NCBI GenBank assembly: GCA_964631475.1
Contig: CAZVWK010000003.1
Span: forward strand, 1-60,727
Origin: an uncultured Elusimicrobiaceae bacterium
Lineage (GTDB): Bacteria > Elusimicrobiota > Elusimicrobia > Elusimicrobiales > UBA9959
DNA length: 60,727 nt
Reading direction: 5' to 3'
Part shown: piece after piece, positions 24,395 to 60,200 of the stretch
Layout of the letters: each line of letters opens with the position of its first letter
Numbering within the stretch: position 1 is the first letter of the stretch
Made by a program: the position numbers and the translations under genes
The notes under the pieces: model-generated
Seen by the model: the letters and a program-made list of their open reading frames with translations, nothing else
Database searches by the model: none
What the model was told of the DNA's origin: nothing

Positions 24395-24416
24395 GCCCGT
24401 CCACGGGAGGATTTGG

Positions 24417-25142
24417 ATGAAAAGAATAATGCTGGCCCCCGCCCTCGCCGCCCTCCTGGCGTCGCCGGCGCAGGCCCAGAAGACCCAGATGGTGGCCGTC
24501 AGCGCCGACATCGTGGAGATAAGCGGCTCGATACAGAAGACGCGCGGCTTCTCCTGGAACCAGCTCTTCGAATTCGGGGAAAAGTCGGTCCCCGGGATAA
24601 TACGGCTGGGCGAGTTCGAACGCAAGACGCAGCTGAGCACCTCGCTCAAGCTCCTCGAGACCGAGGGCAAGGCCCAGCTGCTTTCCAACCCCAAGGTCAT
24701 AGCCAAGAGCGGCTCGCAGGCCAACTTCACGGTCGGCGGCGAAGTCCCCGTCCCCTATTCCAACAACCAGGGAGTCGGCGCGGAGTTCAAGAAGCACGGC
24801 GTCATCCTGCAGGTGCTGCCGGTGGTGCTGGCGGAGAAGAAGGACACCGTCGACGTGCAGATCGCGCTGGAGGTCTCCAACCCCGACTATTCCAAGCCGG
24901 TGGTCGTGGGCGGCACCACCATCCCGTCGATGATAACTAGGCAGGTGCAGACCGAGGTGGAGCTCAAGAGCGGCGAAACCCTGGTCATAGGCGGCCTCAA
25001 GAAGAGCAGCCGCAACGTTTCCAAGAACCGCGTGCCGATACTGGGCCATATCCCGCTGATCGGCAAGCTTTTTAGCTCTACGGACATAGTGGAGGACCAG
25101 AGCTCCCTGTTCCTCTTCGTGACTTTCGAGATAATAAAGTAG
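24417..25142 (+). CDS. cpaC: Secretin (CpaC/RcpA type), unusually short
   Basis: Signal peptide and a secretin C-domain (LLSNPKVIAKSGSQANFTVGGEVPVP, GVILQVLPVV, VELKSGETLVIGGL, VPILGHIPLIGKLF). It is only 241 aa in total, with about 70 aa before the secretin domain. Confidence 0.85.
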   Translation: MKRIMLAPALAALLASPAQAQKTQMVAVSADIVEISGSIQKTRGFSWNQLFEFGEKSVPGIIRLGEFERKTQLSTSLKLLETEGKAQLLSNPKVIAKSGSQANFTVGGEVPVPYSNNQGVGAEFKKHGVILQVLPVVLAEKKDTVDVQIALEVSNPDYSKPVVVGGTTIPSMITRQVQTEVELKSGETLVIGGLKKSSRNVSKNRVPILGHIPLIGKLFSSTDIVEDQSSLFLFVTFEIIK

Positions 25143-25155
25143 CGAGGCTGCAAGG

Positions 25156-27393
<2,238 letters not shown>

Positions 27394-27403
27394 GGGCGGT
27401 CTT

Positions 27404-28948
27404 ATGAGGAAAGCCGCCGCCGCCGCCCTTTTCCTGCTGGTCCTCGCCGTTCCCCGGGCGGAGGCCTCCGTCTTCACGCGCGCGGAGATGGACGAGATAA
27501 GCTGCGCCGCCCTCAAGCTGCAGCTCTTCTATTACTACTTGGCCCCGGACAGGGAGCAGAAGATCCTAGACTACTCCTTCAAGTGCCGCGGCCGCGACAT
27601 ACGGCTGAAGATGCCGCAGTGGATGATAGATTCCGTCCAGGGCATGGCGGCCAAGCCCGCCTGGCGCGACCCCGAGGAGGGCGAGATAAGCGAGGCGGCC
27701 CTCTGGCAGGCCTCGGTCTCCATCCTCTACGAGTTCATGGAGATAAGCCGCAAGACCTTCCCGCCCGACCAGGGCGGGGCCTCCATCGCGCCGGCGCTGC
27801 TGGTGAAGGAATATTCCGACATGCGCATCCGGTTCCAGATGTCCCTGGACCGGCTCTACCGCGCCCGGCTGGGCGATTCCATGGAGGGGCGCGGGCGCGG
27901 CATGCTGGCGACCCTCTCCCTGATACTAAAGGAGATGGAGAGCATCGCCGACGCCATCTCCAGTTCCGACTCCAAGGCCTACGCCGCTGCGGTGACCGCC
28001 TCCTCGGTCCTGGCGCAGGACGCCTTCTTCCAGGTCTTCGAGCCGCCCCGCAAGTACGAGCCGCCCCGCCAAGCTTCGCGGTACGACAACCTAGTTACCG
28101 TGGCGGCCACGGTCCTCGGCGTCATACTGGTCTTCGCGGCGGTCCGCCTCTTCTTCATGCTCAACGAGAAAGAGACGGAGAAGATGACCGCGGATTACAT
28201 GGGCCGCGTCAACAGGTGGACCGACGACTTCTCGCGCCAGTTCATGACGGTCAAGGTGCACTACCTGGTCTTCCTGCCGGCGGGCTTCTTCGCGCTGTTG
28301 GGACTGCTGACCTTCAACCTGCTGATGTTCCTGCTGCTGAGCGCCTTCGGCATCTACGTCGGCATGAAGATGCCCGGCATCGTGCTGAAGTCCATGAAGC
28401 AGAGCCGCGGCAAGAAGATCGACACGCAGCTGATGGACGCGCTGATCCTGCTCTCCAACTGCCTCCGTTCGGGCCTGGACGTGGTCCAAGGCTTCGAAAT
28501 GGTCTCCAAGGATCTGCTGCCGCCCATCTCGGACGAGTTCGGCCTGGTCATAAAGAACTACCAGCTCGGCATGCCCTTCGAGAAGGCGCTGGGCGTCATG
28601 GAGGAGCGCGTCGAGTCAAAACTGCTCTCCTACATGATACGCGCCATCGTCCTGCAGCGCCAGATGGGCGGCAACCTGACCAAGGTCTTCGAGCGCATCG
28701 TGGTGGACATCCGCGAGGAGTCCAAGCTGGAGGAGAAGACCAAGGCGATGACGGCCCAGCAGAAGATACAGTCCATAGTCGTGGGCATCATGCCGTGGAT
28801 CATGGTCTCGGTCATGTTCATGTTCCAGCCGGACACGATGATGAAATTCTACGGGACGCCGCTCGGCATGTTCGTTTTCGTCGGCTGCGCCATCTGGATA
28901 AGCATAGGGATGAAGGTCGTTTCCAGCCTGGGTAAGATCCGGGTCTAG
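27404..28948 (+). CDS. tadB: TadB (T2SS-F family) with an N-terminal extension of about 250 aa
   Basis: The C-terminal 250 aa are T2SSF-like (LILLSNCLRSGLDVVQGFEMV, AIVLQRQMGGNL, flanking TM segments). The N-terminal part has a signal-like start MRKAAAAALFLLVLAVPRAEA and no family I recognise. Confidence 0.85.
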   Translation: MRKAAAAALFLLVLAVPRAEASVFTRAEMDEISCAALKLQLFYYYLAPDREQKILDYSFKCRGRDIRLKMPQWMIDSVQGMAAKPAWRDPEEGEISEAALWQASVSILYEFMEISRKTFPPDQGGASIAPALLVKEYSDMRIRFQMSLDRLYRARLGDSMEGRGRGMLATLSLILKEMESIADAISSSDSKAYAAAVTASSVLAQDAFFQVFEPPRKYEPPRQASRYDNLVTVAATVLGVILVFAAVRLFFMLNEKETEKMTADYMGRVNRWTDDFSRQFMTVKVHYLVFLPAGFFALLGLLTFNLLMFLLLSAFGIYVGMKMPGIVLKSMKQSRGKKIDTQLMDALILLSNCLRSGLDVVQGFEMVSKDLLPPISDEFGLVIKNYQLGMPFEKALGVMEERVESKLLSYMIRAIVLQRQMGGNLTKVFERIVVDIREESKLEEKTKAMTAQQKIQSIVVGIMPWIMVSVMFMFQPDTMMKFYGTPLGMFVFVGCAIWISIGMKVVSSLGKIRV

Positions 28949-28961
28949 CGGGACACGCGAT

Positions 28962-29858
28962 ATGGAACAGTTCGTGAGCTTTTTCATGCTGGCGCTCCTC
29001 TTCGTGGGGTCGATGGCGACCTTCACGGCGGTGCAGCGCCTGATGAAGCCGCCGGACGCCGGGCCGTCCCCCATCGGCGACATCAGCGACATGGAGGGCA
29101 AGGAAACCTCGGTCTTCTCGCGCCTGGACCCCAACCGCAGCGCCTTCGAGCGGCTGGACCTCTTCCTGGCCCGGGACCTGGGCCTGGAGAAGAAGCTGGA
29201 GGAGACCTACATGCTCCTCGGCAAGCCGGCCAACACCGACCCGCTCAAGATCCTCCACGCCAAGGAGATGGCCGCCGTCGGCCTGCCGCTGATAATGTAC
29301 CTGGCCAGCGGCTCCGTCTTCTCCATCATATTCATGCCCCTGGGGTTCCTGCTGCCGGACGGGGTCATATTCTCCCGCCGCATCCGCGAGCGCCAGGAGG
29401 ACATCATCCGCAACTTCCCGACCTTCGTGGACCTTTCGGCGCTGATGATAGAGTCGGGCCTGGACTACATGACGGCCTTCGACCGCATCGTGAAGATCTC
29501 CACCCAGAAGACAGGCCTGGAGCTGGAGGTGGAGCGCATGATAAACGAGGTGCAGCTGGGGTACTCCCGCCGCGACGCGCTGCGCAACCTCGCTATGCGC
29601 ACCGGCCTGCAGGAGATCCGCTCCTTCGTGGGCCTGATCATCCAGTCGGACGAGCTGGGCACCAGCCTCGTCGAGCTGCTGCGCAACTTCTCCACGGACA
29701 TGCGCTTCCGGCGCCTCAACAAGGCAGAGAAGCTGGCGGCGCAGGCCTCCACGAAGATGCTCATCCCGCTCTTCATATTCATTTTCCCGACCGTGTTCAT
29801 ACTGATGCTGTCGCCCATGATAGCCGACCTGCTGATGGGCGGAGCTCTCCCGTTCTGA
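28962..29858 (+). CDS. tadC: TadC (T2SS-F family)
   Basis: NFPTFVDLSALMIESGLDYMTAF, GLIIQSDELGTSLVELL and terminal TM segments. It follows tadB. Confidence 0.85.
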   Translation: MEQFVSFFMLALLFVGSMATFTAVQRLMKPPDAGPSPIGDISDMEGKETSVFSRLDPNRSAFERLDLFLARDLGLEKKLEETYMLLGKPANTDPLKILHAKEMAAVGLPLIMYLASGSVFSIIFMPLGFLLPDGVIFSRRIRERQEDIIRNFPTFVDLSALMIESGLDYMTAFDRIVKISTQKTGLELEVERMINEVQLGYSRRDALRNLAMRTGLQEIRSFVGLIIQSDELGTSLVELLRNFSTDMRFRRLNKAEKLAAQASTKMLIPLFIFIFPTVFILMLSPMIADLLMGGALPF

Positions 29859-29893
29859 CGGGGGGGCGGAAATAACGAATCAAAGAGGGCCTT

Positions 29894-31216
29894 ATGAAAA
29901 ACATCGCTATGTTCCTCCTGGCCGCGGCGGCGGCCTGGGCGCCGGCCTACGGGCGGCAGCCCGCCAAGCCCTCCCACACGGAGGAATCGCTGTTCCTCAA
30001 CATGCAGAAGATCGGCCTGGGCGCGCTCGACGACGCGGACGAGAAAAAGAAGTTCCTCGACACGGTGCAGCTCGAGAAGCAGAAGATCCAGTACAAGATG
30101 CTGCAGGGCGTCTACGAGAACGCCTACCAGCTCTACCGCTCCGGCGACTACGACAGCGCCAGGAACCTGGCGGCGCGGATACTTTCGATAGACCCCAATT
30201 TCCAGGACGCCTCCATGATCATGGAGGCGTCGGCCCAGCTGCGCGGCAGCGCCAGGCCGGCGCTCTCCGAGCGCGTCATGATAGAGGACCGGTTCAAGGA
30301 GGCCCTCTCCCTGTACCAGGAGGGCCGTATCGTGGAGGCCCACCGCAAGATGGAGGAGGTCGCCAAGCTCTCTCCCAACAACATCAAGGCCCGCTACTGG
30401 CTGGGCCGCATGAAGGACAACCTCAAGGACTATTACGTCTCCAAGGGCGAGGAATCCTACGGCAAGCGCGACCTCAAGGGCTCGCTGGACAACTACTACA
30501 ACGCGCTGCTGATAAAGCCGCGCGAAACCGCGATTATCGACCGCATAGCCCGCGTCGAGGACGAGCTCAGGCGCGAGCGCGCCACCGACAGCCTGAAATC
30601 CGCGCTCGAGGCCTACGCGCAGGGCAACCTGCAGGGCGCCTACAACGGCCTGCGCAAGGCGCTCGAGATCCAGCCCGGCGACGCCAAGGCCGGCAAGCTG
30701 CTGGGCGACGTCAAGAGCGAGATAGAGCAGGGCTTCATCGCCCGCGGCCGCAAACTTTACGGGGAGCGCAAGTACACAGAGGCCATCTCGGAGTGGGACA
30801 AGGCCAAACCCTATTCCGCCAATCCCAAGTACCTAGCCCAGCTGGTCTCCCGCGCCAAGGAGCAGATGCGGCTCGAGGAGGAGGCGCGCAAGCGCAGGGC
30901 CGAGGAGGCCGCGCGCAGGGCCCGCGAGGAGGAGGAGCGCAGGGCGAAGGAGGAGGAGGAGCGGCGCAAGGCGGAGGAGGAGGCCAGGCGCAGGGGAACG
31001 GCCTCCGGCCCCATAGAAAAGAAGCCCCAGGGCGTCAGCGAGGAGAACCGCCAGGCCGCCCAGCGGCACTACATGGAGGGCATCAAGCACTTCCAGAGCG
31101 CCAACTACGACAAGGCCCGCGACGAATGGACCATCGCCAAGCAGCTCGATCCGGGCAACGCCGACGCCGACGCCGGCCTCAAGCGCATCGAGCAGCTGCT
31201 CTCCGGGGGGCGCTAG
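29894..31216 (+). CDS. Secreted TPR-repeat protein (TadD-like position) with an embedded E/R/K-rich helix
   Basis: Signal peptide, several TPR-like units (YQLYRSGDYDSARNLAARILSIDPNF, HFQSANYDKARDEWTIAKQLDPGN) and a charged run RKRRAEEAARRAREEEERRAKEEEERRKAEEEARRR. Confidence 0.8.
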   Translation: MKNIAMFLLAAAAAWAPAYGRQPAKPSHTEESLFLNMQKIGLGALDDADEKKKFLDTVQLEKQKIQYKMLQGVYENAYQLYRSGDYDSARNLAARILSIDPNFQDASMIMEASAQLRGSARPALSERVMIEDRFKEALSLYQEGRIVEAHRKMEEVAKLSPNNIKARYWLGRMKDNLKDYYVSKGEESYGKRDLKGSLDNYYNALLIKPRETAIIDRIARVEDELRRERATDSLKSALEAYAQGNLQGAYNGLRKALEIQPGDAKAGKLLGDVKSEIEQGFIARGRKLYGERKYTEAISEWDKAKPYSANPKYLAQLVSRAKEQMRLEEEARKRRAEEAARRAREEEERRAKEEEERRKAEEEARRRGTASGPIEKKPQGVSEENRQAAQRHYMEGIKHFQSANYDKARDEWTIAKQLDPGNADADAGLKRIEQLLSGGR

Positions 31217-44066: not shown

Positions 44067-44104
44067 AGTCCCGCCGGCCGCTTGACCTGTCAAGACCTAA
44101 CCCC

Positions 44105-44132
44105 TTGACAAAGGAGAAAAATCCTGTATACT
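44105..44132 (+). promoter_or_regulatory. Sigma70-type promoter of the riboswitch-like leader
   Basis: TTGACA (44105-10), a 16-nt spacer, then TATACT (44127-32). It is preceded by the palindrome CTTGAC-ct-GTCAAG (44081-94). Confidence 0.55.
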
Positions 44133-44159
44133 ATAGTGCCCGGCCCCGGTGGCCGCGCG

Positions 44160-44252
44160 TTTTGGTGTGTCACGACAATAGCAAACCCGTCCAAAGACGG
44201 GGGCGCAAAGCCGAGGGTCCGACCGCGGACTGCCTGGCTGCCGAAGACCGGA
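44160..44252 (+). promoter_or_regulatory. Candidate c-di-GMP-I (GEMM-I) riboswitch aptamer
   Basis: Ordered conserved blocks: AGCAAACC (44180-87); hairpin CCCGUC-CAAA-GACGGG (44186-44201); GGCGCAAAGCC (44202-12); hairpin GUCCG-ACCG-CGGAC (44217-30); CCUGGCUGCCGAAG (44233-46). These match the GEMM-I consensus as I recall it. Terminator hairpins follow. Not verified with a covariance model. Confidence 0.55.
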
Positions 44253-44257
44253 AAGCG

Positions 44258-44280
44258 GAAAAGGGCGCTTGCGCCTTTTC
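44258..44280 (+). terminator. First terminator-like hairpin of the leader
   Basis: GAAAAGG(G)CG-CUUG-CGCCUUUUC: short GC stem, A/U extension and a U4 run. Confidence 0.4.
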
Positions 44281-44296
44281 AACGCAATCTTTCAGG

Positions 44297-44341
44297 CCGT
44301 TCGCCTGTCTTCGGGATACCGGAGCCGGCGGGCGGTTTTTT
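44297..44341 (+). terminator. Second, stronger intrinsic terminator of the leader
   Basis: CCGUUCGCC (44297-305) pairs with GGCGGGCGG (44327-35) for 9 bp including two G-U pairs. An internal UUCG mini-hairpin is present, followed by U6 (44336-41). Confidence 0.6.
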
Positions 44342-44499
44342 ATTTCGGCGGGGTTTTTATGAAAAAAGACCTGATTTGCGGAAAAAGGCGTCTCGCGCGC
44401 GCTGAAACAAATCCGAAATATTGTACTATTATCATAATCAACGCGCTTTGCCGCCTGGAAAGGGCTCTGCGGCAAGGCGTGGTTCTACTTTATTGCCTG

Positions 44500-45201
44500 A
44501 TGACCGGACTTTCACTAATCATCCTGTTGGCCGCCGCCCCGGCGGCTTTCGCCGACGCCGGGACCGTCTCCGTTTCCACCCGGCCGCCCTCGCAGGCCGA
44601 GCTGGCCCCCGCGCAGGCTGTCAATATTCCCGCCGCGGTGAGCGCGCTCAAGGGGAAGAATTACTCGGCCAAAATGGCGGCCATCTTGAACCTGGCGAAA
44701 ACCCGGGACAGCGGCGCCGTGCCAGAGCTGCTCAGGCAGTACATGAGAGAGAAGGACTCCGGCGTAAAAGCGAAGATATTGGAGGCGGCCTCCGCTTTCG
44801 GCGACTCGGCTCTTATGCGGGAGGCGGCCGGCGAACTGCTGACCAGCACTGACACCCGCCTTCGCTACAGCGCGGTCTACGCGCTGGGCTACTCCCCCTC
44901 CGGTGCCGCAGTCCCCTCGCTGCTGGCCATCTTCCGCGGCGCCGACGAGCCAAAACCTCTGCGTATGCAGGCGGCCAACGCGCTTTCCCGCTTCCCGCGC
45001 GAGGACGTCTACGCGGCTTTCGTGGAGGCATTGTCCGACGGCGACCCGGAGATGCGCAGACAGGCCGCGGTCTCTCTGTCCCTCTGCTTCGCCGGCGAGC
45101 CGGACAGGGTGCGGCCCCACCTGGAAAAATTAAGGTCCGATCCGGAGACCGCGGAGACCGCGGAGACTTACCTGGAGATGATGGGCCCGGTGAAAAAATG
45201 A
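44500..45201 (+). CDS. Secreted HEAT-repeat (PBS-lyase-HEAT-like) protein
   Basis: The ATG at 44500 gives the signal peptide MTGLSLIILLAAAPAAFADA. Repeated units of about 30 aa follow (AILNLAKTRDSGAVPELL; RYSAVYALGYSPSGAAVPSLL; RMQAANALSRFPREDVYAAFVEAL; MRRQAAVSL). In-frame codons upstream (44269-44499) are AT-rich and atypical, so I treat them as non-coding. Confidence 0.65.
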   Translation: MTGLSLIILLAAAPAAFADAGTVSVSTRPPSQAELAPAQAVNIPAAVSALKGKNYSAKMAAILNLAKTRDSGAVPELLRQYMREKDSGVKAKILEAASAFGDSALMREAAGELLTSTDTRLRYSAVYALGYSPSGAAVPSLLAIFRGADEPKPLRMQAANALSRFPREDVYAAFVEALSDGDPEMRRQAAVSLSLCFAGEPDRVRPHLEKLRSDPETAETAETYLEMMGPVKK

Positions 45202-45208
45202 GGCGAAG

Positions 45209-48200
45209 ATGACCCCGGCCAGCCGGAAAAAACGCGCCGCCCTCGCGGCAGCCCTGCGCGGCTGCCTCGCGACCGGGCTTTTCCTCCTGCCGGAGCCGGC
45301 CGCCGCCCAGGCCATACCCTGGGGCAATACGCATACCGGCAAGAACGTGCGCATACATGTCTCGATGAATGGCGTCGGCGACGGCTCGGCCATAAGCTTC
45401 ACGGCACCCAAGGACGGCAAGATCGCCGAGATACAGATAGTCGGCTCACGCGACGTGGACGGCTCGTTCATCCTCGGCCTCAGCGAGACGCTTACCTCGG
45501 ATTTCAATGTCTGGCTGGATTCCGCCTCATATACGCTCAATACGGCGGGCGACGGCGTCTTCTGGGCCGGTTCCAATATGCCGGACCTGCCGGACGTTGT
45601 CGGCGGCCGGCTCTACTATATAATCGCAATGCGCAATACCGGCGCCGACACCGAGAACGGCGTTGTCTGTTTCGAGGATAATCCCACCATCGCCTTCGAC
45701 AATAGCGGTAACCCGGTGGAAGACGTCAACCTCGGCGCCTTCGCCAATGAGAACGGCTTGGCCTGGGGCGGCATCACCGGCGCCCCCATCTTCCTCGTCC
45801 GCTATACCGACGGCACCTGGTACGGCCAGCCCTATGTCAGGGCGCCCAATAACGCCTCCACCACCGGCTACGATACCGTCTTGGCCGGCGCGCCGATACT
45901 CAGCGTCCCGGTCTACTCCAACACCAACCTCGTCGCCCAGCGCTTCACGCCCGGCGCCTCCGATATAGGCGTCACCGGCTTCGGCCTCTATATGCAGCGT
46001 GTGGGCAGTCCCGCCGGCGACCTTTTCGCGCGGCTGCACAATGTCACCGATAATATGGTGGTCGTCGATACCGTTTCCGTGACGAACGCGGCCTCGGTCC
46101 CCCTAAGCCCGGCCGCCGGCTGGCTGGACGTGGTCTTCCCCGGAGTGAGACTGCAGGCCGGCAAGAACTACCGGCTCTCCTTCTTCTCGCCGGCGGCCAA
46201 CGCCAGCAATTATTACCGCCCGATAGTTCACGATGTGAGGAACAGCGGCGCCCCATACGAGAACGTCAGCTTCGGCGGCACCGGAGCCTGGTACGAGACC
46301 AGCGCCAATAACGGTGCCAGCTGGAACCTGCCGGCCATCGGCGGAGACGTGGCTTTCCGCCTGCTCAGGGACGTCAACCCGCCCACGGTGACGCTGCTGC
46401 AGCCTCAGCATAATACCTGGCGCAAAACGTTGCCGCAGATAACCGGCACGGCGGTGGACGACTACTACATCCCCGCCGGAGGCGTGAAACTCTTCCTGAT
46501 AGACGATATCGCGGGCAAACGCTGGAACGGGACGGACTGGAACACCGACTATTTCACCGGCGACGAAAATACGCCCGCGCTATGGGTCTCCGCCGGCGCG
46601 CAGTCCGCCGCGCCCGGCGCCATAGTGAACTGGACATACGATATCTCCTGGCAGCACGACAGGCGCTATACCATCTACGCCAGAGCTATGGACCGGGCCG
46701 GCAACTATTCGGCCGGCTGGTCCACCACAACATTTCATTACGACAATTATCAGCCGGCGCCGGAGCGGCCCGATTCGCTGGTCACCACACCATCTCCCGG
46801 CTCCTATGTAAGCCAGATGACGGCCCTCGTCGGCACGTCTTATGACAACCTGCGCGGCGGCATAAACCTGGTCAAGTGGCTGCTCTGGCGTCAGTCGGAC
46901 GGTAATTACTGGAACACCTCTGTCTGGACGCCAGGCCCGCTGCCCGCTGCCGACGCCTGGTACAATTCCAATATCTTCCCCGCCGGCGGCGTCAGCGTGA
47001 CCTGGCAGCCGGACCCGGCCACCCTGCCGCTGGCGGCGGATATGCTGGCCGGCGATATCTACCACATTTCCGCGCGCGCCCAGGACCGGGTCGTGGACGC
47101 CGCCGGCGCCCCGGCCCCCAACTTGGAGGTAGACAGGTCCACCATAACCTTTTACTGGGACGATATTCCTCCAACCTCGTCGATCACGCTGCCGCTTGAT
47201 GGCGGCGTGGTAGGCCAGACCCCTGTTTTTTACGGCACCTATTACGACCAGCACGCGGGCATCGGCCCGTCCATCGGCGGCACGGTCAAGATTAAACTCT
47301 ATGATAAGACCATGAACCTGTGGTACTACACGGGCGACTGGCGCAGCGCCGCGCCGACCAACGACCAGCTGCCCTCGGCCCAGGTCTGGGCTTCCTCCTG
47401 GACCTTCGCCACCCCGCCTCTGACGGGCGGACATCAGTACCTGGTCGTCAGCGTGGCGCAGGACCGCGCCACGCCCGGAAATTACCAGACTTCTTTCGCC
47501 GAAGGAACCTCCTCCAACACTTTCGTCTGCGACAACGAGAACCCTTCCGCCGGCATAACCACGCCTTCCCATAACCATCACAATATCATGGCCCAGCTGG
47601 CAGGCACGGCTTCAGACAGCCCCCAGGCTTCCCAGATAAACCGCGTGGAGTTCGAGCTCGTCTACCCGGCGGGTTCCCCGGCCTGGGCCTGGGACGGCGC
47701 GGCGGGTATCTGGCGCGCCTCCTCCGGGAATTTCAGCACCTACAACGTGGTTATGGGGGGATATCCCGCCTGGACTTACGATGTGCCGGGCGGCATAAAC
47801 TGGCAGCAGGATACCCTCTACAGGCTGCGCGTCCGCTCGGTGGACAATATCGGCAACAAGAGCCAGAATTTCGTCGACGGCCTGACCGAGCGCACTTTCT
47901 ACTACGACGTGTCCAACCCCACTTCCACCGTCACTACGGCGGTGCAGGCCGGCCAGCCTGTCCCGCTGCTGGCCGGGACGAGCAATTATCTGCGCGACAT
48001 AAGCCTGGTCTACGGCACGGCCGCGGACTGGCCGGCCGTCGGCAGCGAGCTGAGCGCCGTCTCCGTCTTCATCAGGAAGATGGACGACCCGGCCGTCAAC
48101 TATTACTGGTACGAGCCGGGCAAATGCTGGAGGACGGGCGGCACCGTATACGCCAATAATTACGAGACCCGGGTGGGCGGCTGGCAGTACGACACTTTCG

Positions 48201-51200
48201 CGCAGGGCGTTTCCTGGTCCACCGGCACCAGGTGCGACAACGGCGCCGCCGCCTGGAACAACGGCGGCACTTTCGAGATACGGACCGAAGCCCGGGACAG
48301 CGCCTATCCCGGCAATAACCCGCTGCCTTACGGCAACCGGGAAAAAGGCGGCACCTACGACAGCCTGGGCCGCGCCGTCGTGGTCTACGATCCGAAAAGA
48401 CCTTTCTCCCGGCTTTCCAATATCCCGGGGACCAATTACACCAACAGCCTGCCGACTCTTTACGGCACGGCCTCCGACAACGACGCGGGAGTCGTCACCT
48501 ACTCGCCCGGCATAAGTTCGGTGAAAGTGCATATCTACAAGCAGGGCCCGCCGCCGGTGCAGACCTACAACGGCACGGCCTGGGTGGACGGCGAGCAGAT
48601 GGACGACGCCTACTGGCTGAACGCGACCTATACGCCTTATTTCGCGGGGGCTTCGTCCGGCACCTGGTCCTACACTGTCGGCAACGATAAATGGCAGCAC
48701 GGCACCACCTACCGTATAGTGCCCAAGACCTACGACCTCGCGGGCAATTACGACGCGGTCCTGGCCACCAGGACTTTCGTTTACGACGTTTACCAGGCCC
48801 CTCCTTCCGAGGCCCCGCGCAGCGAGATCTCTTACCCCGTGGACGATTTCCACACCAATAACTGGAGCGACCTGGTCACCGTGACCGGCACGGCCCATGA
48901 CAATCCTCCGATAGGCAAGGTCCATAAACTCAAACTGATACTCAAGCGCATACAGGGGAATACTACCTCCTACTGGAACGGCGTGACCTGGGCCGACGGC
49001 GACGTGCCCTCCGATACGACGGCCTGGCCCGAGGGCGATCCCGCCGACGGGGCCTACAATACCTCGGAAGAGGCTTTCATCTGCGGAGCCGGCGCGACGG
49101 CCTGTGTGGTGCCCGACGGAGCCACGGTCTGGACGCCCGACCTGAAATACTACCTCTACGCCGAGACGCAGGACCAGGCGGGCAACTATGAGCGGGAGCG
49201 CACCACTCATACCTTCGTCTACGAGGTGCAGGCCCCCACGGTGACCATTACCTACCCGCAGACGGATCTGTATGTTTCCCAGACCGGCAGGGTCGCCGGC
49301 ACAGCGGCCGATAACTGGCCGGGCCGGGTCAATCACGTCGAGGTGCGCATAAGGCGCGACGACGGCTATTACTGGAGGGCCTCGGACGATACCTGGACCC
49401 AGGACGGCGCGCCCGAGGTCTGGAACAATATCGTGTCGCAGGGCACGCTGAGCCCCTCCGGCACCTGGTGGCAGCTCAACGATACCCCCTGGGAAACGAA
49501 CAGGACATACGGCGTCAACGCGCGCGTACGCGACAAGGCCGGCAACTGGGGTCTCGTCTACAGCACCGCTTCCAATGTCGCGGCCGACTTTACCACGCCA
49601 ACTTCCACCGTCACCTACCCGGCGCACGGCGCCAACCTGCAGGAGGAGGTCACGATCATCTCCGGTTCGGCCTCGGACGCGGCGCCCGGCCAGGTGGACA
49701 AAGTCCTGGTCTCCTTCTACTGCAATAACGATATCTGCCAGGGCAATTACTGGAACCCCGTGGCGTCGGCCTGGAATTCCGCGTCGGAGATATTCAGCGA
49801 GGCGACCCTGCTGACCGGCAACAGGTGGCAGATAGCGGCCCCTATATGGGCCAATTCCACCGGCGAAGTGGAATACCAGGTCTTCGCAAAGGCGGTGGAC
49901 AAGGCGGGCGGGGAAGTCCCCAAACCCGGCGCCACCGGCGACGGCCCCTGGATAACTTTCTACCTGACAACTCCCGGGCCCAGTTCCGGGATCACTACGC
50001 CGAACGACGAAACTCCGCATTGGAACCCGTCGGTGGCCCCGGCGCTGGCCGGTACGGCCAACTTCGCCAACTCGGTGGCCCTGAGGCTTGTCGATCACGG
50101 CTCTGACAACCTGCTGGGCACCGGCGACGACCTTGCCTGGGACGGCGATTCCTGGGAGCCGGCCGGCGCCTATACCGGCTATTTCCCGGTAACCGTCTTC
50201 AATGCCCCCAACTGGCAGTGGTCGATGGCGGCCGGCAACTGGAACCCGGACCGCAAATACCGCGTCCGCTCCAAGGCCACGGGCGCGACCGAAGAGGTCC
50301 CGGGCCTGGGCGTTGACTTCGTGCTGGACGCGGACGATCCTTCAGCGGCCATTACCCTGCCGACGGCCGACTACGTCCGGTCCGTGCCGCTGCTGGCCGG
50401 CAACGCCTCGGACGCGGCGCCCGGCGTAGTACAGGAAGTCTATTTCAGGGTAAGGCGGCAGGAATCGTCCCAGTTCTGGAACTGGAACGCCGCCACTTTC
50501 ACCGCGCTGAGCGGCGCCGACACCAACCTGACGGCTTACCTGGACGCGGGCGTTTACAAGTACGACATGCCGTCCGAGGCCTTCGAGACCGACAAGGGCT
50601 ATATCGCCCAGCTCGTCGTGAAGGATAAGGCCGGCAACCTGACCCAGGCCACCGACAGGCCTTTTGCCATAGACAAGTCCTCGCCCGTGGCCAGGCTACT
50701 GCTGCCCTACGACGCCAATGACAAGGGCGTCCGTTCGATACCGGCCATCTCGGGTACCGCAGCCGATACGCAGAAAAATAGCTCGGTGCAGATAGCCATA
50801 CAGAAATGGGTCGGCGCCACACTGGTCTGGTACGACGGGTCCGGTTTCACCTCGCTGCAGGAGGAGCCTTACTGGATTCCCGTCACGCCCCTCAACGGCT
50901 TCCTGTCGCCGGATGCCACCTCCTGGGCCTACGCCCCGGCCGGCCTCAACGATAATTTCGAGGGAGGGTATCGCTATCTGATACTCACCCGCGCCGTGGA
51001 CACGGCCGGAAATACGCAGGAATCATTCTCGGTGGGCGTTTCCTCCCGGGTCGTGAAAGTGGACAAGGCGCCGCCTTCCTCGCTGTTCATCGCGCCGCTG
51101 GACAACGGCGACGGGGTCAGCGGGCGGTACAAGCCGTCCGCCATAGGCCAGTTCCCCGCCAATCACCTGCGCGGCACGGCCTCAGACAACCCTTCCAACC

Positions 51201-54200
51201 TGGCGGCCGGGCTGCAGACGGCGCAGATACGGCTCTCTTACCTGCTCGCGGGCGACACCTATTACTGGACCGGCGCCTCCTTCAGCTCCGGAGCCGTGGC
51301 CGAGGCCGCGGCCTGGCGCAACGCCTCCATAACCGGCTCGGCCCCGATCTGGAACTGGGACTATACCACCAGCGTGGTCTGGCCCGCCGGGGACAGGGAG
51401 TACCTAGCCGAGGCGCGCGGCATGGACGACTCGCGGCTCTCCGACGACGGCGGCGACGGCAACTGGGAGCAGGCCCCCTATGTCAGCCGCGGGTTCATAG
51501 TCGACAATACCCCGCCTGAAGTCCTCATCACCTCGCCCGTGGCTGCGGCGGTCAGGACGATGAGCATCATACGCGGCACGGCGGAAGCCGGCCTGGCGGG
51601 CCACAAGTGGACCGAGCTGAAGCTCTCCACCTCCGGAGTGGACGGCACCCGCTACTGGACCGGTTCGGATTGGACGCCGGCGGAGACCTGGATAACGACG
51701 GTTAAGGAGGGCCCGACTTCCTGGTATTACACCGTCCCTCCCGCTCTGCTCTCCGACGGCAGGGACTATACGGCCGTCGCGCGGGCGCTCGATTTCGCCG
51801 ATAACTACTCCTCAGTTTACTCCACCTACGTCTTCACCTATGACACCGTGCCGCCGTATGTCGCCGTCTCGTTCCCGCTCAACGACGCGCCTTACTCGCA
51901 AATAAGGCTTTCCACGCCGGTGGCCGGCTCCTCGCATCAGAACGACCAGGCCTCGGCCCGGGCCAAGGTCAGCACGGTGGCGGTGCAGATAGCCGACCTG
52001 GACGCTCCCGGCGGGCCTTTCTGTTTCGACGGCGCCCTCTTCGGCGCCTGCCCCAGCTGGCACCCGGCGCAGGGGACCGTCGACTCCTGGACCTGGAACA
52101 GCGCCGCCCTGGCTTTCGTCAACGACAGGCGCTACCAGTTCACCGCCAAGGCCGTCGACTTCGCCGGCAATGAGTCGGCGGCGGCGCAGGTCTTCATCCG
52201 CTACGACGTGGAGCGGCCCACGTCCACCATAACCCAGCCGCTGGCCGGCTATACCACGGGCTTCACCCAGATACGCGGCACCGCCAGCGACGAACGGGAC
52301 GGCCCCCGGAGCTACGAGGCGAGGCTGTCCAGCTATACCGTGAAGGTCGCTCTCAAGCGGCTCACGGCGCCGGCCGGCTGGTGGAACCCGGCCACCGACG
52401 ATTTCAGCGACGCCAACCCGCTCTGGTTCGAGGCCTATACCAGCACCTCGGCCACCCCCAACCAGTTCACCTACAACCTGACGGGTCCCATGCTATCTTA
52501 CCTGGCCAACCCGTCCAACCAGAACGTCACCTACCGCATAGTGCCGTGGGCCTTCGACCGGGCGCTCAACAGGGAGTACGGCCCTTCTGCGGCCGAGCCG
52601 CAGGACGGCGATATCCCGGCGGACGTGGGGATAACCGTCATCTACGACAACGAGAAGCCGGTCACTTCCATAACGCTGCCAAATGCCGCGGCCCATAATA
52701 CGCTGCCGAACATAACCGGCACCGCCGACGATAATATTCGCGTAAATTCCGTGCGCTTCACGGTCTACAACCAGAGCCAGAGCAAGTACTACGACCCGTC
52801 GCAGAACCCCCCGTGGGTCATCGACGTGGAGAACAACGCCCCGTGGGTCCTTGCCCAGAGCACCATCTATCAGACCTCGGCGGCCTGGACCTACAATATC
52901 CAGAATTCCAGCTGGACCAGCGGCGTGCGCTACCGCGTGCGGGCCAGGGCCACGGACCTCGCCGGCAACCTGGACGTCGTCTACAGCACTTCTACCTTCC
53001 AGTTCGACAATAATGCCCCGGTCTCCAGCGTGACCTACCCGGCCAACGGCCAGCACCTCAGCGCCGCCGCCCTGCCGGTGACCATAACCGGCACCAGCTT
53101 CGACTTCCCCGTAGGCGACCAGAGCGGCGTCAGCCAGATCGGTATGTACCTGCAGCGCGCCTCAGACCTGGCCTACTGGTCCGGCAGCGGCTGGGAGCCG
53201 CTCGAGCAGGTGCTGCTGGCCAACCCCGTCGGAGATTACTCCTCCTGGAACAGGGGGGTGGAAGGCGGCATGTTCACCGGCAATGACGGGGAGCGCTTCC
53301 ACATCCACCTCAACGCCCGCGACGCGGCGACGAACCAGGAGGGCTACTCGGTCAAATCCACCTTCGTCTACGACATCGGCAGGCCCACCGGGACCATCTC
53401 CTACCCCTTTGACAACGGCTACATAAGCCAGACGGGCCGGATAACCGGCGGCTCCTATGACAAGCCCAACGGCGCGGTCAGCGACGTGCGCGTGCGCATA
53501 AGGCAGACCGCCGGGCCGAACGCCGGCCGCTACTGGCGCGTCTCGGACGGCAGCTGGACCATAGACGGCGCGCCGGAAGTCTGGAACAGCGCGGCGCAGT
53601 ACGGGACCCTGAGCCCGGCGGGCACCTGGTGGCAGCTCAATACCGCGCCCTGGCAGAGCGGCGAGACCTACGAGGTGGACGCCTATGCGCTGGACATGGC
53701 GGGCAACTACCAGCTGCCTTTCTCCACGGCGACGAACGTAAAGGCCGACTTTACGGCGCCGTCTTCGACGGTCACTTATCCGGCTCACGCCTCGGTTGTG
53801 GAATCCGAACTGACCGTCATCTCCGGCTCCGCCTCGGACCCGGCGCCCGGCGTACTGGACAAGGTGCGGGTCTCCTACTACAAGGTGGACACGGCCAGGT
53901 GGTGGGATTTCGGCGCGCAGGCCTGGAGCGCGACCTCTGAGCAATTCACCGAGGCGGCCCTGCTGGCCGGCAATCGCTGGGAGGCCACCGGCGTCTCTAC
54001 GCCGACCTGGATCGCCACGCTGGCCGGTCTCGATTACCGCATTTTCGCCAGGGCCGTGGACCAGGCCGGCAACGAGGTGGCCAAGCCCGGCGCCCCGGCC
54101 GCCGACTCCTCTTTCATACAGTTCACGCTGCGGCCTCCGCCGCCGGAGTCTACCATAACGACCCCCGACGACACCGTGCCGCATCTGCGGACTTCGCCGG

Positions 54201-57200
54201 CCCCGACCATCATCGGCACGGCCATATACTCCACCACGGTGCAGCTCAGGATAGTCGACTACGGCGCGGACCTCGCCGAAGGTCTCGGCAACGACGACCT
54301 GGCCTGGAACGGCTCGGCCTGGGTGTCAACCACGGCCTTCGCCGGCTATATCGGCGTGAACAGTTTCGCCTCTCCCAACTGGCAGTGGACCATGGCGGGG
54401 GGGAACTGGAACAATAACCGCCGCTACCGGGTGCGTTCCATGTCCGCCCACGAGGTGGACGGCACCAGCGAGGCGCCGGCCCCCGGCCGCGAGTTCATAA
54501 TAGACGATACTCCGCCTTCCGCCGCGGTCACCGCCCCGGACAGGGCCTATCTGCCGCGCCTCCAGGAACTGCGCGGCTCGGTCTCAGACGTGTCTCCCGG
54601 CCTGCTGCAGTCCGGCTATTTCCGTGTCACGCGCCAGGGGGCGGCCCAGTTCTGGGACTGGCGCCTGTCCACTTTCACGGCCGCCGGCGCGGACATAAAC
54701 CTCCCGGCGTCCATCCTGGCCGGCATCGCCTCCTATACGACCGACTATTTCCAGACGGGCCAGGCGTGGGAGGCCGACCGGACTTACGAGGTTCAGCTTT
54801 TCGCCTCGGACCGGGCCGGCAACCTGGGCTCCTCACCGGTCGCGACTTTTACAGTAGACCGCAGTTCGCCGGCGGCCCGCATCCTCGTGCCGCGCGACGC
54901 CAACGGCAAAGGCATCCGCTCGATAGCCTCGATCAGCGGCACCGCCGCCGACAACTGGGGCAACGCCAATATAGAGGTGGCCGTGCAGCAGTGGGGCAGC
55001 CCGCGGCTCTGGTTCAACGGCACGGATTTCCTGGAGCCCGGCGAAACACCCTACTTCATACCGCTGGACGCCAACGGCACGCTCTCGCAGTACGCCACCT
55101 CCTGGGCCTACGCTCCCGCGGTCCTGGACACGCGCTTTACCGCCGGGACCACCGGCCTGCGCTACCTGGTGCTGGCGCGGGCCACGGATATAGCGGGCAA
55201 TATCCAGGACCAATACGCCGTCGGTTTCTCTTCGGTCATCATCTCCATCGACAAGAGGCCTCCATCCTCGCTCATCGCTTTTCCGGCCGACCACCAAGAC
55301 GGCGTGAGCGGACGCTATAAGCCGTCCAATGCCGGCAAGGCGGGCACCGGGACCCGCTTTTTAGGCTCCGCTTCCGACAATTTCTACAGCGAGCGCAATG
55401 CCGGCGTGTCGGCCGCCAGGATACGGCTCTCCCATCTGCTCGCCGGCGATACCTGGTACTGGCTGGGCGCGTCGTTCAGTTCCGGCACGCTGGCCGAGGC
55501 GGGCGCCTGGCAGCCGGTCAGCGTCAGCGCCAATCCCCCGGACTGGGACTGGGTCTACCTGCCCGACGTGGAGTGGCCGGCGGGCGACAGGGAGTACAGG
55601 CTGGAATCCATGGCGATGGACGACTCGCGGCTCTCCGACGACGGCGGCGACGGCAACTGGGAGAGCGCCTGGACCAGGGGCGCCAACCTCAGGCAGTTCA
55701 TCATCGACGATACCCCGCCGGCCGTGCTGATAACTTCGCCGACTTTCGACGCCTCGGGCGCGCTGGCCGAGATACGCGGCACCGCCGACGCCGACATCGC
55801 CGGCTTCAAGCGTACTGAAATAAAGATTTCCACCAGCGGCGTGGACGGCGCCCGCTACTGGACCGGCGCCGGCTGGTCGCCTTCGGAGACCTGGATAAAC
55901 TCCGACAAACAGGGGCCGGCCTCCTGGTACTATACGGTGCCCGGCGCCATGCTCAGTGACGATACGGTCTACACGGCCGTGACCCGCGCCGTGGACTACG
56001 CCGATAATTTTTCCTCGGTCTATTCGACGAAGACCTTCACTTACGACGTCACCCCGCCGCTGGTCTCGATGTCGCACCCTGAGAACGCCGCCACCTATTC
56101 GCGCATCTCCCTCTCCACCCCGATAGCCGGCGCCACCGCCAATACGCAGTCCTCGCCTTTCACCGGCGCCAGCGCGGTCGCCGTCGCGATCAGCGAGATA
56201 GACGGCGCCGGCGGTTACTCCGCCTGTTTCGACGGCAACGCCTTCGCGGGCTGTCCCTCGCCGGTCTGGCTGCCGGCGCAGGGTACGCCGGCCAGCTGGA
56301 CCTTCAACGACGCGGACCTGTCCTTCCTGAGCGACAGGCGCTACAAGTACGAGGCCCGGGCGACGGACATAGCGGGCAACCAGTCCGCCCCCGCGTACGT
56401 TATAACAAAGTTCGACCTGGATATCCCGACCTCGACCGTGGTCTCCCCTTCCGCCGAATATGTCAGGACTCTCACGCTGATATCCGGCACCGCCTCCGAC
56501 GAGCGCTACGGCGCCCGCACTTACGAAGCCGGCCTGGGCACCTACACGGTCAAGGTCGCCGTCCGGCTGGTGGGAGGCGACTGGTGGAACGGCGTCGACG
56601 CTTTCAATTCGGCCAATCCGCTCTGGTACGAAGCCTCGGTGGACACCGCGCCCTACGGCGCCGGCCAGCCGGTGCTGAACTGGACCTACGCCGTGCCGGC
56701 CAGCATGCAGGGCGTCATCTCCGGCCTGGGCAGGAAAGATTACCTGGCCGTGCCCTGGGCCTATGACCTGGCGCTCAACCGCGAATTCGGCCCGGGCGGC
56801 GCCGAGCCTTCCAACGCCGACATCCCGGCCGGCGTCGGCCGCGTCATACGCTACGACAATATCATCCCCGTGGCGGAGTCCACCGCCCCGGCCGACGGCG
56901 GCTACTACAACAGCGTCGCCGCCCTCTACGGAGTCGCCTACGACACCGGCTCGGTGACCGGCGTGCAGGTGCTCTTCAAGGCGAGGGGGTCGTTCAACGC
57001 GACCTGGCGCGGCACCTATAACAACGACACCTCCGACTGGGACGACACGGCGTCCAAGTACACGCGCTGGAGCACCGCCACCTTCAACAACGGCGCCTGG
57101 ACCATAGCGCTGCCTTCGCTGATGCCGGTCAACAATAACCGCTTCTCAGTCTGGGCGCGGGCCATAGACGCGGCCGGCAACTGGCAGCTAAGCCCCTCCC

Positions 57201-60200
57201 CGGCCCAGATAGACGCCAACCTGAAGGCGGACGGCTCTCCCGCCCATGTCTTCACTTTCGACCGCACCATCCCGGTCACGGGCGTCACGGCCCCGTCCAG
57301 CTACGCGCTGGCCGTCTCCACCGGCCTCATCACCGGCACTTCGTTCGACGCGGGCACCGAGCCCTCGGGCGTCAGCGAGGTGCGCCTGCGCTTCCGCCGT
57401 TCCGACAACTCTTGGTGGAGTTTTATAGACAATAACTGGACCAGCGCCACCCAGTCCGACACCTTCGGCGTGGACGGCTCCGACCCTTGGTCCAAACCGA
57501 TAAACCAGGCTTCGCAGGAGGACGGCTACCGCTACGATATCTACCACTTCGCCAAGGACCGCGCGGGCAACAATGAGTCGGGCGCCTCTTTCTCCACCTT
57601 CACTTTCATCACCGACTATACCGCGCCTTCGTCCAGCATCACCTTCCCGGCCAATAACAGCTTCATCGGCGCGGTCACCAGCCTCTCCGGCACCGCGGAC
57701 GACAGCGCGGAGAACCTGCGCGGCTGGTCCGGCGCCCGCGGCTTTGAGTCCGGCGTGTCCGCCGGAGGCGTGGCGGTCGCTCTCCAGCGCCTGACCGACA
57801 ACTACTGGTGGAACGGGACCAATAACTTCGTGTCCGGCGCCATGCAGTGGCATGCGGCCGCCTTCGACGGCGCGTCTTCCGGCACCTGGACCTACGCCCT
57901 GCCGGCCGGGGCCATAGCCGACGGCACCACGTACTACGCGATGAGCCGGGTGACGGACATCGCGGGCAACATAAAGACGCAGTGGACGACCAACTACTTC
58001 ACCGGCGACACGACCCCGCCCGATTCCAGGGCCACCGGGCCCATGGGAACGCAGTCCGTAGTCAACACCATCTCGGGCACCGCGCAGGATACACCTCCGG
58101 GCGAGCTTAGGCCGACGGGGACCATCATGGTGGCGCTGCGGCAGATTTCGCCCGTAGTGAACTGCTTCAACGGCTCCGGTTTCGTCGCTTGCCCGGCCGG
58201 CGTCTATCCGGACGACCGCGTCTGGATCGCCACCGGCACAACCGGAAACCCGGCCGGGCAGCCCGCGGCCTGGACCTGGGACACCTCGCTGATAAACTGG
58301 GCCAATAACGCCGACTACGACGTGCAGGCGCTGGCGGTGGACCGCGCCGGCAACACCCGTCCCCAGCCCGGGGCCTCCTCGCCCGACCTGACATTCAGGT
58401 TCGTCAGCCCGGCGGCGGACACGGTCATTACGCAGCCCGCGACCGAGTTCGGCAATTACCGCGCGGGAGACGTGCTGTCGATGCTGGGCACCGGCGTCAA
58501 CCTGCGCGCCTCCAACAGCGTGGAGATACGGGTAAAGCGGCTGAAGGAGCCGGCCAGCTGGTGGTTCGAGCCCTCGGTGCACTGGGTGAACAGCGACACC
58601 TTTACCTATGTCGGCCACACCGCCGGCTCCTGGTCCATGGGCCTCAGCGGCTCGTCGGCCTTCAACGTGGACAATGCCAGCTACACCCTGTCGGCGGTGG
58701 GCTATAACGCCGCCAATGAGGCGGAAGTCCCGCCGACCAACAGGACGATAATAATAGACAATACCGTCCCGCTGGCGGTCATCCAGTCGCCGTCATACCA
58801 GTACATCAGGACCATGCCGGCCATAAGCGGCACCGCGGCCGATCCCGGACGCGGCGAACTGCCGTCCGATTACCGCGAGGGGATGAGCCATGTCCGAGTC
58901 ATTATCAAGGACCTTTTCGCCGGCACCTACTGGAGCGGTTCCTCTTTCGGGTCATTTGGCCCGCAGAGCGAACTTCCCGTCAACGGCGTGCTGAACTGGT
59001 CCACCTCCACCCACGTGACCCCGGCGCTGCTCGACGGGCGCAACTACCGCGTCTTCGCCAAGGCTTACGACAAGGCCGGCAACCGCGACGACAACGAGGG
59101 CTCGATGCCCGGCTTCGGCGTGGTCTTCGACACCGCCCCGCCGAACTCGTTCGTCGCCTACCCGGCGCATATGCAGGTGCTGCGCTCCCTCTCGCCGCTG
59201 GCCGGCACCGCCGAGGATCCGGCCGGGGCCAATCCGCCCAATCTGAAATCCGACCTAGGGCGGGTCGCGGTGCAGCTCTACGACGAGGCCGGCGTGAAAT
59301 GGTGGCATCACGGCGCCGGCGCCTTCTCGGTGCTCAGTTCCAGCTTCAACATAACCTCAGGCACCGATACATGGTCCTATACGCACCCGAACCTGGAGGC
59401 CTCGCTGGAGTCGGGCAAGTACTACATACTGAGCTCCAGCGCGGTGGACCGCGCCGGCAATCCCCAGGCCGCGGTGGTCAACGAGGTGTCCTCCCTCACC
59501 TTCGTCTGGGACAGGACGGCCCCCGAGGCCTTCTTCGCCGTGCCGGTCGAGGGCGGGCGCTACCGCCCGTCGGTTCTCACCGGCGTCAATGCGCTCAACG
59601 GTACCGCCTCGGACGCGCCGCTGCCGGGCATTACGGACCAGCTCAATAAGGCGCAGATAAACCTGAGTTATCTGCACTCCGGCGACACCTATTACTGGAC
59701 CGGCGCGGCCTTCAGTTCCTGGACAGTGACCTTCGACGGGGCCTGGCAGGACGTGGTCGGGGCCGCTTCGTGGAACTATCCTTTCGACGGCGCGAAATGG
59801 GTGTCCGACAGGGAGTACACGCTGCTGGTACGGGCCTTCGACAAGGCCGAGCCCATGGGCGCCAACGGCGGCAACGAGAGCGCCTGGGCGCAGGTGAAGT
59901 TCGTGGTGGACGGCACTCCCCCGGTCTCCCGGGTTTCCACGCCCACCGCCGGCAGCTACATCCAGGCTTCGCTCTCCGAAATATCCGGCACTTCCTTCGG
60001 CGGCCTGTCGGGCCTGCAGTCCGGGGCGTCGGGCCTGCGGTTGCGCGCCTACTACACCCAGGGCGTGAACACCTGGTACTGGCGCGGCACCGCCGCCCTA
60101 GGCTGGTCGCTGAACTCCCCGGTGGATCTGCCAGTGGATTTCACGGCCTCCGCCTCAACCGTAACCTGGAGCTACCCGCCGGTGGGATGGGAGCCGCCGG

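Follow-up and report, generated by a model that had tools for sequence, protein, structure and literature searches.

The DNA analysed here, called the window throughout, is a stretch of 60,727 nucleotides (nt) covering positions 1 to 60,727 of the forward strand of contig CAZVWK010000003.1 (assembly GCA_964631475.1) from an uncultured Elusimicrobiaceae bacterium, and this report concerns the leader RNA encoded ahead of an operon for a HEAT-repeat protein and a giant immunoglobulin-like (Ig-like) protein. Judged from its sequence and that of its relatives, the leader is a conserved, selectively maintained riboswitch of the GEMM-I fold, a known RNA class; its noteworthy features are an A20 ligand pocket of the GEMM-Ib type, a P2 loop outside the GNRA family, and an antiterminator/terminator platform of predicted OFF type. 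The open reading frame (ORF) of an S41-like protein ends at 44066 and the ATG of the HEAT-repeat gene, as placed by the gene caller, lies at 44500, leaving a spacer of 433 nt. The locus holds the following features, with the orthologous leader L121, from a metagenome, named where it bears on them:

44105-44110 (+), -35 hexamer TTGACA, from the promoter scan; the same hexamer in L121
44127-44132 (+), -10 hexamer TATACT, from the promoter scan; TATAAT in L121
44141-44155 (+), 5'-terminal hairpin H0, CGGCC/GGCCG, followed by a U-rich linker, from a constrained fold
44169-44248 (+), GEMM-I-fold aptamer; Rfam RF03167 match 44171-44246, match of our own model R1 44167-44250
44169-71 and 44173-74 with 44242-43 and 44246-48, aptamer helix P1
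44181-82/44205-06 and 44186-91/44196-201, aptamer helix P2, loop CAAA
44209-21/44226-39, aptamer helix P3
44180 (+), ligand-pocket position 20, last base of the junction J1-2: A where the canonical base is G, from the cmscan alignment and Vc2 numbering
44207-44209 (+), junction J2-3, A47 A48 A49, with the canonical A47, from the cmscan alignment
44241-44251 (+), switching strand: C92 (44241), the P1 3' strand and two linker bases, from alignment and folding
44250-44293 (+), spacer hairpin T1, core 44260-67/44272-79, outer pairs 44255-57/44283-85 and 44250-52/44288-90, from folds, -12.8 kcal/mol
44294-44341 (+), intrinsic terminator T2, lower stem 44294-305/44327-38, upper stem 44309-14/44319-24, loop GAUA, U6 at 44336-41, -29.1 kcal/mol
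44304-44314 (+), antiterminator partner CCUGUCUUCGG inside the T2 5' arm, complementary to 44241-51
44500-45201 (+), first cargo gene, secreted HEAT-repeat protein of 233 aa (P0001), Pfam HEAT_2, 1.9e-18
45209-60727 (+), second cargo gene, giant secreted Ig-like repeat protein of at least 5173 codons that runs off the window; Big_7, Big_13, Big_3_2 and Big_3_3 domains

An earlier note, made from the letters alone, had described a 433-nt spacer that opens with TTGACA-N16-TATACT and leads to a HEAT-repeat protein and an adhesin-like gene of more than 5000 codons, and this layout is upheld by the coordinates, the promoter scan, and the HEAT_2 and Ig-like domains of the two proteins. The promoter agrees with the sigma-70 consensus at 11 of 12 positions in a scan that found 2 promoter-like sites against 0.1 expected from shuffles, and its counterpart in L121, TTGACA-N16-TATAAT, is perfect (12/12); from the promoter spacing, transcription probably starts near 44138-44140. 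The outer pair of H0, C44141-G44155, is replaced by U-A in L121, which folds UGGCCC/GGGCCA. The open frame of the giant gene extends from 45194 to 60727, i.e., 5178 codons up to the window end, and begins with a signal-like N-terminus. An ATG at 44359 was considered as the start of the HEAT gene and rejected, the region 44359-44499 being rich in A/T-ending codons and unconserved, with the gene caller choosing 44500. A 14-nt inverted repeat, CTTGAC-CT-GTCAAG, lies at 44081-44094, 11 nt upstream of the -35 hexamer; its core TTGACCTGTCAAG is unchanged in L121 (1185-1198) though the bases around it differ, and the repeat may serve a regulator as its binding site, or mark where the S41 transcript ends.

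The leader contains AGCAAACC, the hairpin CCCGUC-CAAA-GACGGG, GGCGCAAAGCC, the hairpin GUCCG-ACCG-CGGAC, and CCUGGCUGCCGAAG, the motif order that had been recognised as GEMM-I, and two covariance models confirm this recognition of the order and of both hairpins. When the whole window was scanned with cmscan at Rfam gathering thresholds, the sole match at that level was RF03167, c-di-GMP-I-GGC (c-di-GMP, cyclic di-GMP; clan CL00126), at 44171-44246 (+), covering the full length of the model with 63.1 bits against a gathering threshold of 59 and an expectation value (E) of 1.4e-12; a second, lower-scoring match of the same clan passed its own threshold, with its score masked by clan competition (the RF01051 threshold is 35 bits). 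Similarly, model R1, which was built from 17 canonical aptamers with G20, all of them from other phyla and none of this lineage, found the aptamer as its only match in the window, at 78.2 bits and E ~5e-23. All 25 aptamer pairs form in the window sequence. In 24 length-matched relatives, 92.8% of the cells of the GEMM-I structure are paired and 12 pairs show double changes; the covariation score was reached by none of 500 shuffles, and slid controls of the same 24 sequences were only 25-46% paired. Covariation in homologues, which the earlier note had put forward as a check, thus lies above both kinds of control in P1, P2 and P3, and it includes a change from U-A to C-G in P2 of L121.

The landmarks of the Vc2 aptamer are G20 in J1-2, the G45-C22 pair, A47-A48-A49 in J2-3, C92 in J3-1, the G14-C93 pair at the apex of P1, and the bulged A95 (PMC3764141). 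Conserved junction nucleotides are present in the window at the corresponding places: AAA at 44207-09 (A47-A49), C at 44241 (C92), C at 44182 with G at 44205 (C22-G45), and C at 44204 (C44), while the apex pair C93-G14, numbered after Vc2 on the cmscan alignment, is 44242-44174. The first hairpin, said by the earlier note to lack a GNRA loop, does carry CAAA on P2, and this sets it apart: among 101 comparable aptamers the P2 loop fits GNRA in 98, and CAAA occurs only in the window and L121.

The relatives came from two scans. A pattern scan of species-representative genomes in which position 20 could be either purine gave at least 119 GEMM-I-like sites, and the matches listed comprise 109 with G20 and 10 with A20, with no Geobacter genome nor the window's own genome among them. 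A scan of metagenomes with an A20-specific pattern gave seven loci, two of which, L121 and L124, hold the whole leader and keep the order S41, leader, HEAT, giant ORF. Between L121 and the window, the S41-like proteins are 55% identical, the HEAT proteins have repeat-level similarity only, and the giant ORFs are 22-24% identical. At the nucleotide level the identity is 24/28 in the promoter, 28/38 in the 5' leader, 73/76 (96%) in the aptamer, 27/47 in the linker and first hairpin, 45/52 in T2 with its U-tract, and 65/154 (42%) in the next 154 nt, and the conservation of sequence ends directly after the T2 U-tract. The three differences within the aptamer are the two bases of the P2 pair U44190-A44197, which becomes C-G, and one loop base; hairpin T1 is retained through several double changes despite its 27/47 identity, and the T2 pair C44302-G44330 becomes G.U. 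The RNA from the start site to the U-tract is therefore far more constrained than the flanking proteins and under strong selection, because the aptamer is 96% identical while those proteins are 22-55% identical.

The identity of the base at position 20 is central to the question of the ligand. In the cmscan alignment A44180 falls on an unpaired G of the model, the one immediately 5' to the G21-C22 pairs, and L121 likewise has A. The earlier note had located the ligand-contacting G in the 'G before CAAACC'; this assignment fails, as that G is the paired G21 and position 20 is A44180. The G that marks canonical c-di-GMP-I aptamers at this position is absent, and the A that marks GEMM-Ib/cGAMP (cyclic GMP-AMP) riboswitches is found in both the window and L121. 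At position 47, the RF03167 consensus has G (CGC-G-AAgCc) and the window has A44207 (CGC-A-AAGCC), which does not agree with the GGC variant; we take 'GGC' to stand for positions 20/47/92, as is consistent with the model consensus. On this alignment, the pocket triad A20/A47/C92 reads as the GEMM-Ib signature (3'3'-cGAMP-accepting or bispecific) and as neither G-A-C nor G-G-C. RF03167 is the best-scoring Rfam model here and matches at full length, unlike the window in having G as its consensus at position 47. Its label is not diagnostic, because canonical G20/A47/C92 aptamers (L041, L003, L014 and L020) are also assigned to RF03167, whose model outscores RF01051 on them; automatic 'c-di-GMP-I-GGC' labels are unreliable for this sequence subtype, and the element is best described from its sequence as a clan-level GEMM-I member with an A20 pocket, not as the 'GGC' variant.

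It has been reported that G20 contacts the Hoogsteen face of G-alpha of the ligand (PMC6140456, PMC3764141) and that cGAMP riboswitches have an adenine in place of G20, such as A14 of Gs1761 (PMC6140456). The mutation G20A in Vc2 lowers the affinity for c-di-GMP from picomolar to a dissociation constant of 53 nM and admits cGAMP, which is bound at 120 nM; selectivity varies among natural A20 members, from those specific for cGAMP to bispecific ones and to Cbe 1-2, which prefers c-di-GMP, with 30 nM against 463 nM (PMC6140456). The pocket of the window would bind a cyclic dinucleotide via C92 and A47, as in all GEMM-I RNAs, and because position 20 is A it should take 3'3'-cGAMP besides c-di-GMP. 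Of the earlier proposal of a c-di-GMP-I riboswitch, the GEMM-I fold therefore stands, and c-di-GMP as its ligand is not established since position 20 is A. The physiological ligand is somewhat more probably c-di-GMP, sensed with lowered affinity, and cGAMP is a serious alternative, to be regarded as possible.

The evidence on enzymes comes from the 60.7-kb window, in which the only GGDEF enzyme is a GAF-GGDEF protein (13031-14944, +). The signature of Hypr GGDEF enzymes, which make cGAMP, is a Ser at the position equivalent to Asp344 (PMC6456294). The protein in the window has the canonical Asp (GHQIGD), not the Hypr Ser, and its GGDEF motif reads GGDEI; on sequence grounds it makes c-di-GMP signalling plausible in the host and gives no support for cGAMP, within the 60 kb of genome covered. 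A second line of evidence comes from Cellulomonas triticagri and another Cellulomonas, in which the aptamers L029 (7426-7509, -) and L052 (5710-5793, +) have A20 and G20, respectively, and are otherwise identical over 84 nt, so A20 can appear with no obvious switch of signalling system. G43 had been considered as an additional cGAMP signature and was rejected, as it also occurs in 20 of 93 G20 aptamers; this lack of specificity and the Cellulomonas toggle temper the inference from A20 to cGAMP.

These observations bear on a rival in which the leader is a cGAMP-selective GEMM-Ib riboswitch that discriminates against c-di-GMP; the 3'3'-cGAMP to which it answers would be synthesised by a Hypr GGDEF or a CD-NTase encoded at another site of the genome. 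Both orthologues carry A20, the base by which cGAMP riboswitches are said to be marked (PMC6140456); the J1-2 motif ACAAUAGCAAACC recurs letter for letter in L101, from a metagenome-assembled genome (MAG) of the Geopsychrobacteraceae (Desulfuromonadales); and an OFF switch on an adhesin, the polarity predicted below, fits a signal other than c-di-GMP more easily. However, A20 by itself is bispecific, as Vc2 G20A and the preference of Cbe 1-2 for c-di-GMP illustrate, closely related Cellulomonas aptamers toggle between A20 and G20, the only GGDEF protein of the window has the canonical Asp with no cGAMP synthase for the lineage in the data at hand, and the Geobacter members are ON switches (PMC6456294). 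Such selectivity for cGAMP is a tentative option, and detuned sensing of c-di-GMP is retained as the preferred reading of the ligand.

Downstream of the aptamer, the earlier note had proposed tandem terminators. T2 has the features of an intrinsic terminator, i.e., a GC-rich stem followed directly by a U-tract, and is conserved in L121; T1 does not, as its U4 lies inside its own stem and L121 has only U3 there, so that of the two only T2 (U6) stands as terminator-like and T1, which lacks a proper U-tract, is read from its sequence as a conserved spacer hairpin, not as a convincing terminator. The layout of promoter, aptamer and terminator described in that note is present too, and an antiterminator pairing between 44241-51 and 44304-14 had been overlooked. 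The P1 3' strand together with C92 (44241-48, CCGAAGAC) is perfectly complementary to GUCUUCGG at 44307-14 in the 5' arm of T2, and the complete antiterminator helix consists of 8 bp, a C.U mismatch and 2 bp in the window and of 11 continuous bp in L121, where a single linker substitution has occurred. The duplex has -14.1 kcal/mol compared with -3.0 for P1. It is part of the minimum-energy fold when the transcript ends between 44315 and 44326 (the pair probabilities are 0.79-1.0 for the end at 44318), and T2 dominates at full length. The chance expectation of such a complement is about 0.002 per 100-nt stretch, and over 112 related aptamers a downstream complement of the P1 3' strand is about fourfold enriched (18 observed, 4.6 expected). 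In folding, the aptamer and T2 share no sequence and can form together. As the P1 3' strand pairs with the T2 5' arm while the aptamer and T2 coexist as in Cd1, an OFF switch is predicted.

In the proposed mechanism, the sigma-70-type promoter would start a leader of about 200 nt, in which a small 5' hairpin is followed by the three-helix aptamer. Without ligand, the weak, bulged P1 would lose its 3' strand and C92 (44241-51) to 44304-14; the resulting antiterminator would block T2, and RNA polymerase would read through into the HEAT-repeat/giant Ig-like operon. With ligand, P1 would be locked and 44304-14 left free, T2 with its U6 would form, and transcription would stop. T1 (44250-44293) would act as a spacer joining the two competing strands.

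Other pairings were considered and dropped. That of the P1 3' strand with UUCGGC at 44344-49, although part of the minimum-energy fold, involves a stretch not conserved in L121; three L121 substitutions weaken that of the 5' leader 44147-55 with 44235-43, which also has the conserved 5' hairpin as a competitor; 44159-68 with 44316-25 is not conserved; 44232-43 with 44320-29 is broken by the L121 changes at 44325-26; and GGCGCAA at 44202-08 with UUGCGCC at 44269-75 could form only if the core of the aptamer were unfolded, and L121 differs in its T1 sequence. Meanwhile, the A20 aptamers L101, L120/L123, L122 and L126 have the same ACAAUAGCAAACC junction as the window, and each is then followed by a self-contained terminator whose 5' arm or loop has CUUCGG, complementary to the P1 3' strand GCCGAAG, i.e., the same OFF-type design.

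Taken as a whole, a GEMM-I riboswitch with an A20 pocket, with c-di-GMP as the somewhat likelier ligand and an OFF attenuation switch as its platform, is credited with slightly better than even odds, and several points weigh against it. T2 (-29 kcal/mol) beats the antiterminator (-14 kcal/mol) at equilibrium, so antitermination must be kinetic, and a pseudoknot enclosing the antiterminator might still let the lower stem of T2 form, a structure outside the reach of the folding tools used. The orthologous leaders amount to two independent ones only, the GGDEI motif leaves the activity of the GGDEF protein uncertain, and an AT-rich box at 44415-44440 may provide a second promoter and so let transcription escape the switch. 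c-di-GMP usually induces adhesins, and an OFF switch ahead of an adhesin-like gene runs counter to this usual logic. In addition, the A20 riboswitches of Geobacter are ON switches, and deletion of the cGAMP synthase lowers expression downstream of every one (PMC6456294; for pilM, PMC9262584).

Some of these points lead to the opposite polarity, in which T2 is the default and the ligand promotes read-through via an unrecognised pairing. T2 is thermodynamically dominant in every full-length fold, and the general tendency of c-di-GMP to induce adhesins also speaks for an ON switch; the characterised A20 riboswitches are ligand-activated (PMC6456294), and the Bc2 adhesin riboswitch of B. thuringiensis is likewise reported as ligand-activated (PMC4933901). 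However, an ON switch of this kind needs aptamer sequence in the terminator, as in pilM, whose terminator contains aptamer sequence and sequesters C75 (PMC9262584), whereas T2 does not overlap the aptamer. The sole conserved alternative pairing is that of the P1 3' strand with the terminator 5' arm, which follows OFF logic, and the pairings that might link the 3' half of the aptamer to the 3' arm of T2, examined by hand, are broken in L121 by the substitutions at 44325-26. An ON switch is rather unlikely on this evidence.

The platform may also be effectively constitutive, with T2 always terminating to give a short ligand-binding RNA and the operon transcribed from a promoter near 44415-44440. 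The stability of T2 is very high, conservation with L121 stops exactly at its U-tract, and a loosely conserved AT-rich box, with TATAAT in L121, lies about 75-100 nt further downstream; a precedent is Bc1, which is unresponsive to c-di-GMP as its second terminator stays folded (PMC11218506). The box itself, TATTGTACTATTATCATAAT at 44415-44440, stands between T2 and the start codon in a genome of 65% GC, and its L121 counterpart is at ~1525-1556. Nevertheless, the promoter scan found no sigma-70-like site in the box of either the window or L121, the conserved 11-nt antiterminator complement would lack a role, and the leader is sense-oriented and contiguous with the operon in both genomes, which makes a constitutive platform quite improbable. 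Finally, a chance resemblance with no structured RNA, for which it can be said that a GC-rich background permits many hairpins and that the fold z-score of the leader is only -2.4, is already refuted by the E values of two independent covariance models (1.4e-12 and ~5e-23), by an aptamer that is 96% identical between genomes whose neighbouring proteins are at 22-55%, and by the compensatory changes.

Compared with known systems, the leader resembles the Geobacter GEMM-Ib riboswitches (Gs1761/pgcA and pilM) in its three-helix GEMM-I fold with A20, A47, C92 and a short P3, in an intrinsic terminator and an alternative fold that sequesters the ligand-pairing C (PMC9262584), and in having extracellular or surface machinery as cargo (PMC6456294). 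It differs from them in its host (Elusimicrobia instead of Desulfuromonadales), in its CAAA loop on P2 in place of GNRA, and in a terminator without aptamer overlap and a predicted OFF polarity where theirs is ON; moreover, no Hypr GGDEF was seen in the 60.7-kb window. With canonical c-di-GMP-I (RF01051; Vc2, Cd1) it shares the fold, A47-A49, C92 and the C44-G83 positions, and R1, built from canonical members, scores it at 78 bits; unlike them, it has A for G20 and C for G32 of the GNRA loop. Its predicted architecture is also that of the OFF-type Cd1, with an aptamer and terminator that coexist and compete with an antiterminator (PMC9262584). Bc1 of the Bacillus cereus group likewise couples its GEMM-I aptamer to a long platform with two hairpins (PMC11218506), but both of its hairpins are rho-independent terminators, while here only the second is one, the first being without a U-tract in L121. 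In a full-text literature search, no earlier report of a GEMM-I riboswitch in Elusimicrobia was found among the ten top-ranked results.

As for the genomic surroundings, about ten MAG contigs encode proteins with 85-94% identity to the TsaD of the window, and those relatives that have names are Elusimicrobia bacteria; the gene order around tsaD is common to the window and the related contigs, and the same GAF-GGDEF gene as in the window adjoins tsaD in the related Elusimicrobia contigs. An index of 5.8 billion proteins yielded no usable homologues for either the HEAT protein or the giant protein (its first 700 aa), and exact-sequence look-ups of the HEAT protein gave no match; one distant match, P0002, is situated within a run of large genes, and its surroundings are uninformative. 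A Tad/Flp-type pilus cluster occupies ~22800-31200 (+), with TadE-like, RcpC/CpaB, secretin, TadA-family ATPase and TPR lipoprotein genes; two-component kinases and response regulators come after it (~32.8-39.4 kb), still ahead of the riboswitch locus. A second riboswitch-like element lies at 6798-6869 (+), a full-length match to RF03165 '2dG-II' of the purine clan with 57.6 bits (gathering threshold 60; E 5.8e-12 for the whole window), 29 nt upstream of an ORF at 6898-7812 that encodes 304 aa with no Pfam or NCBIfam family.

The standard annotation of this leader, 'c-di-GMP-I-GGC', is wrong at the defining nucleotide and would miss an A20-type pocket, and the compact unit of promoter, aptamer, antiterminator and terminator is readily testable in vitro. 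If the ligand is c-di-GMP, the leader would be a natural example of a detuned A20 sensor. If it is cGAMP, the riboswitch would mark a cGAMP signalling pathway in Elusimicrobia, an uncultured and poorly understood phylum. The narrower case of a 3'3'-cGAMP-selective OFF switch on a giant adhesin operon in Elusimicrobiota is unlikely; if true, it would extend GEMM-Ib riboswitches and cGAMP signalling of the housekeeping kind to a phylum distant from the Desulfuromonadales, with a polarity opposite to that of the Geobacter examples and on a pocket that is also without the GNRA loop. The leader is the most conserved part of the locus and its giant Ig-like surface-protein cargo evolves very fast, and the giant protein would therefore be a regulated factor of the surface lifestyle of this bacterium.

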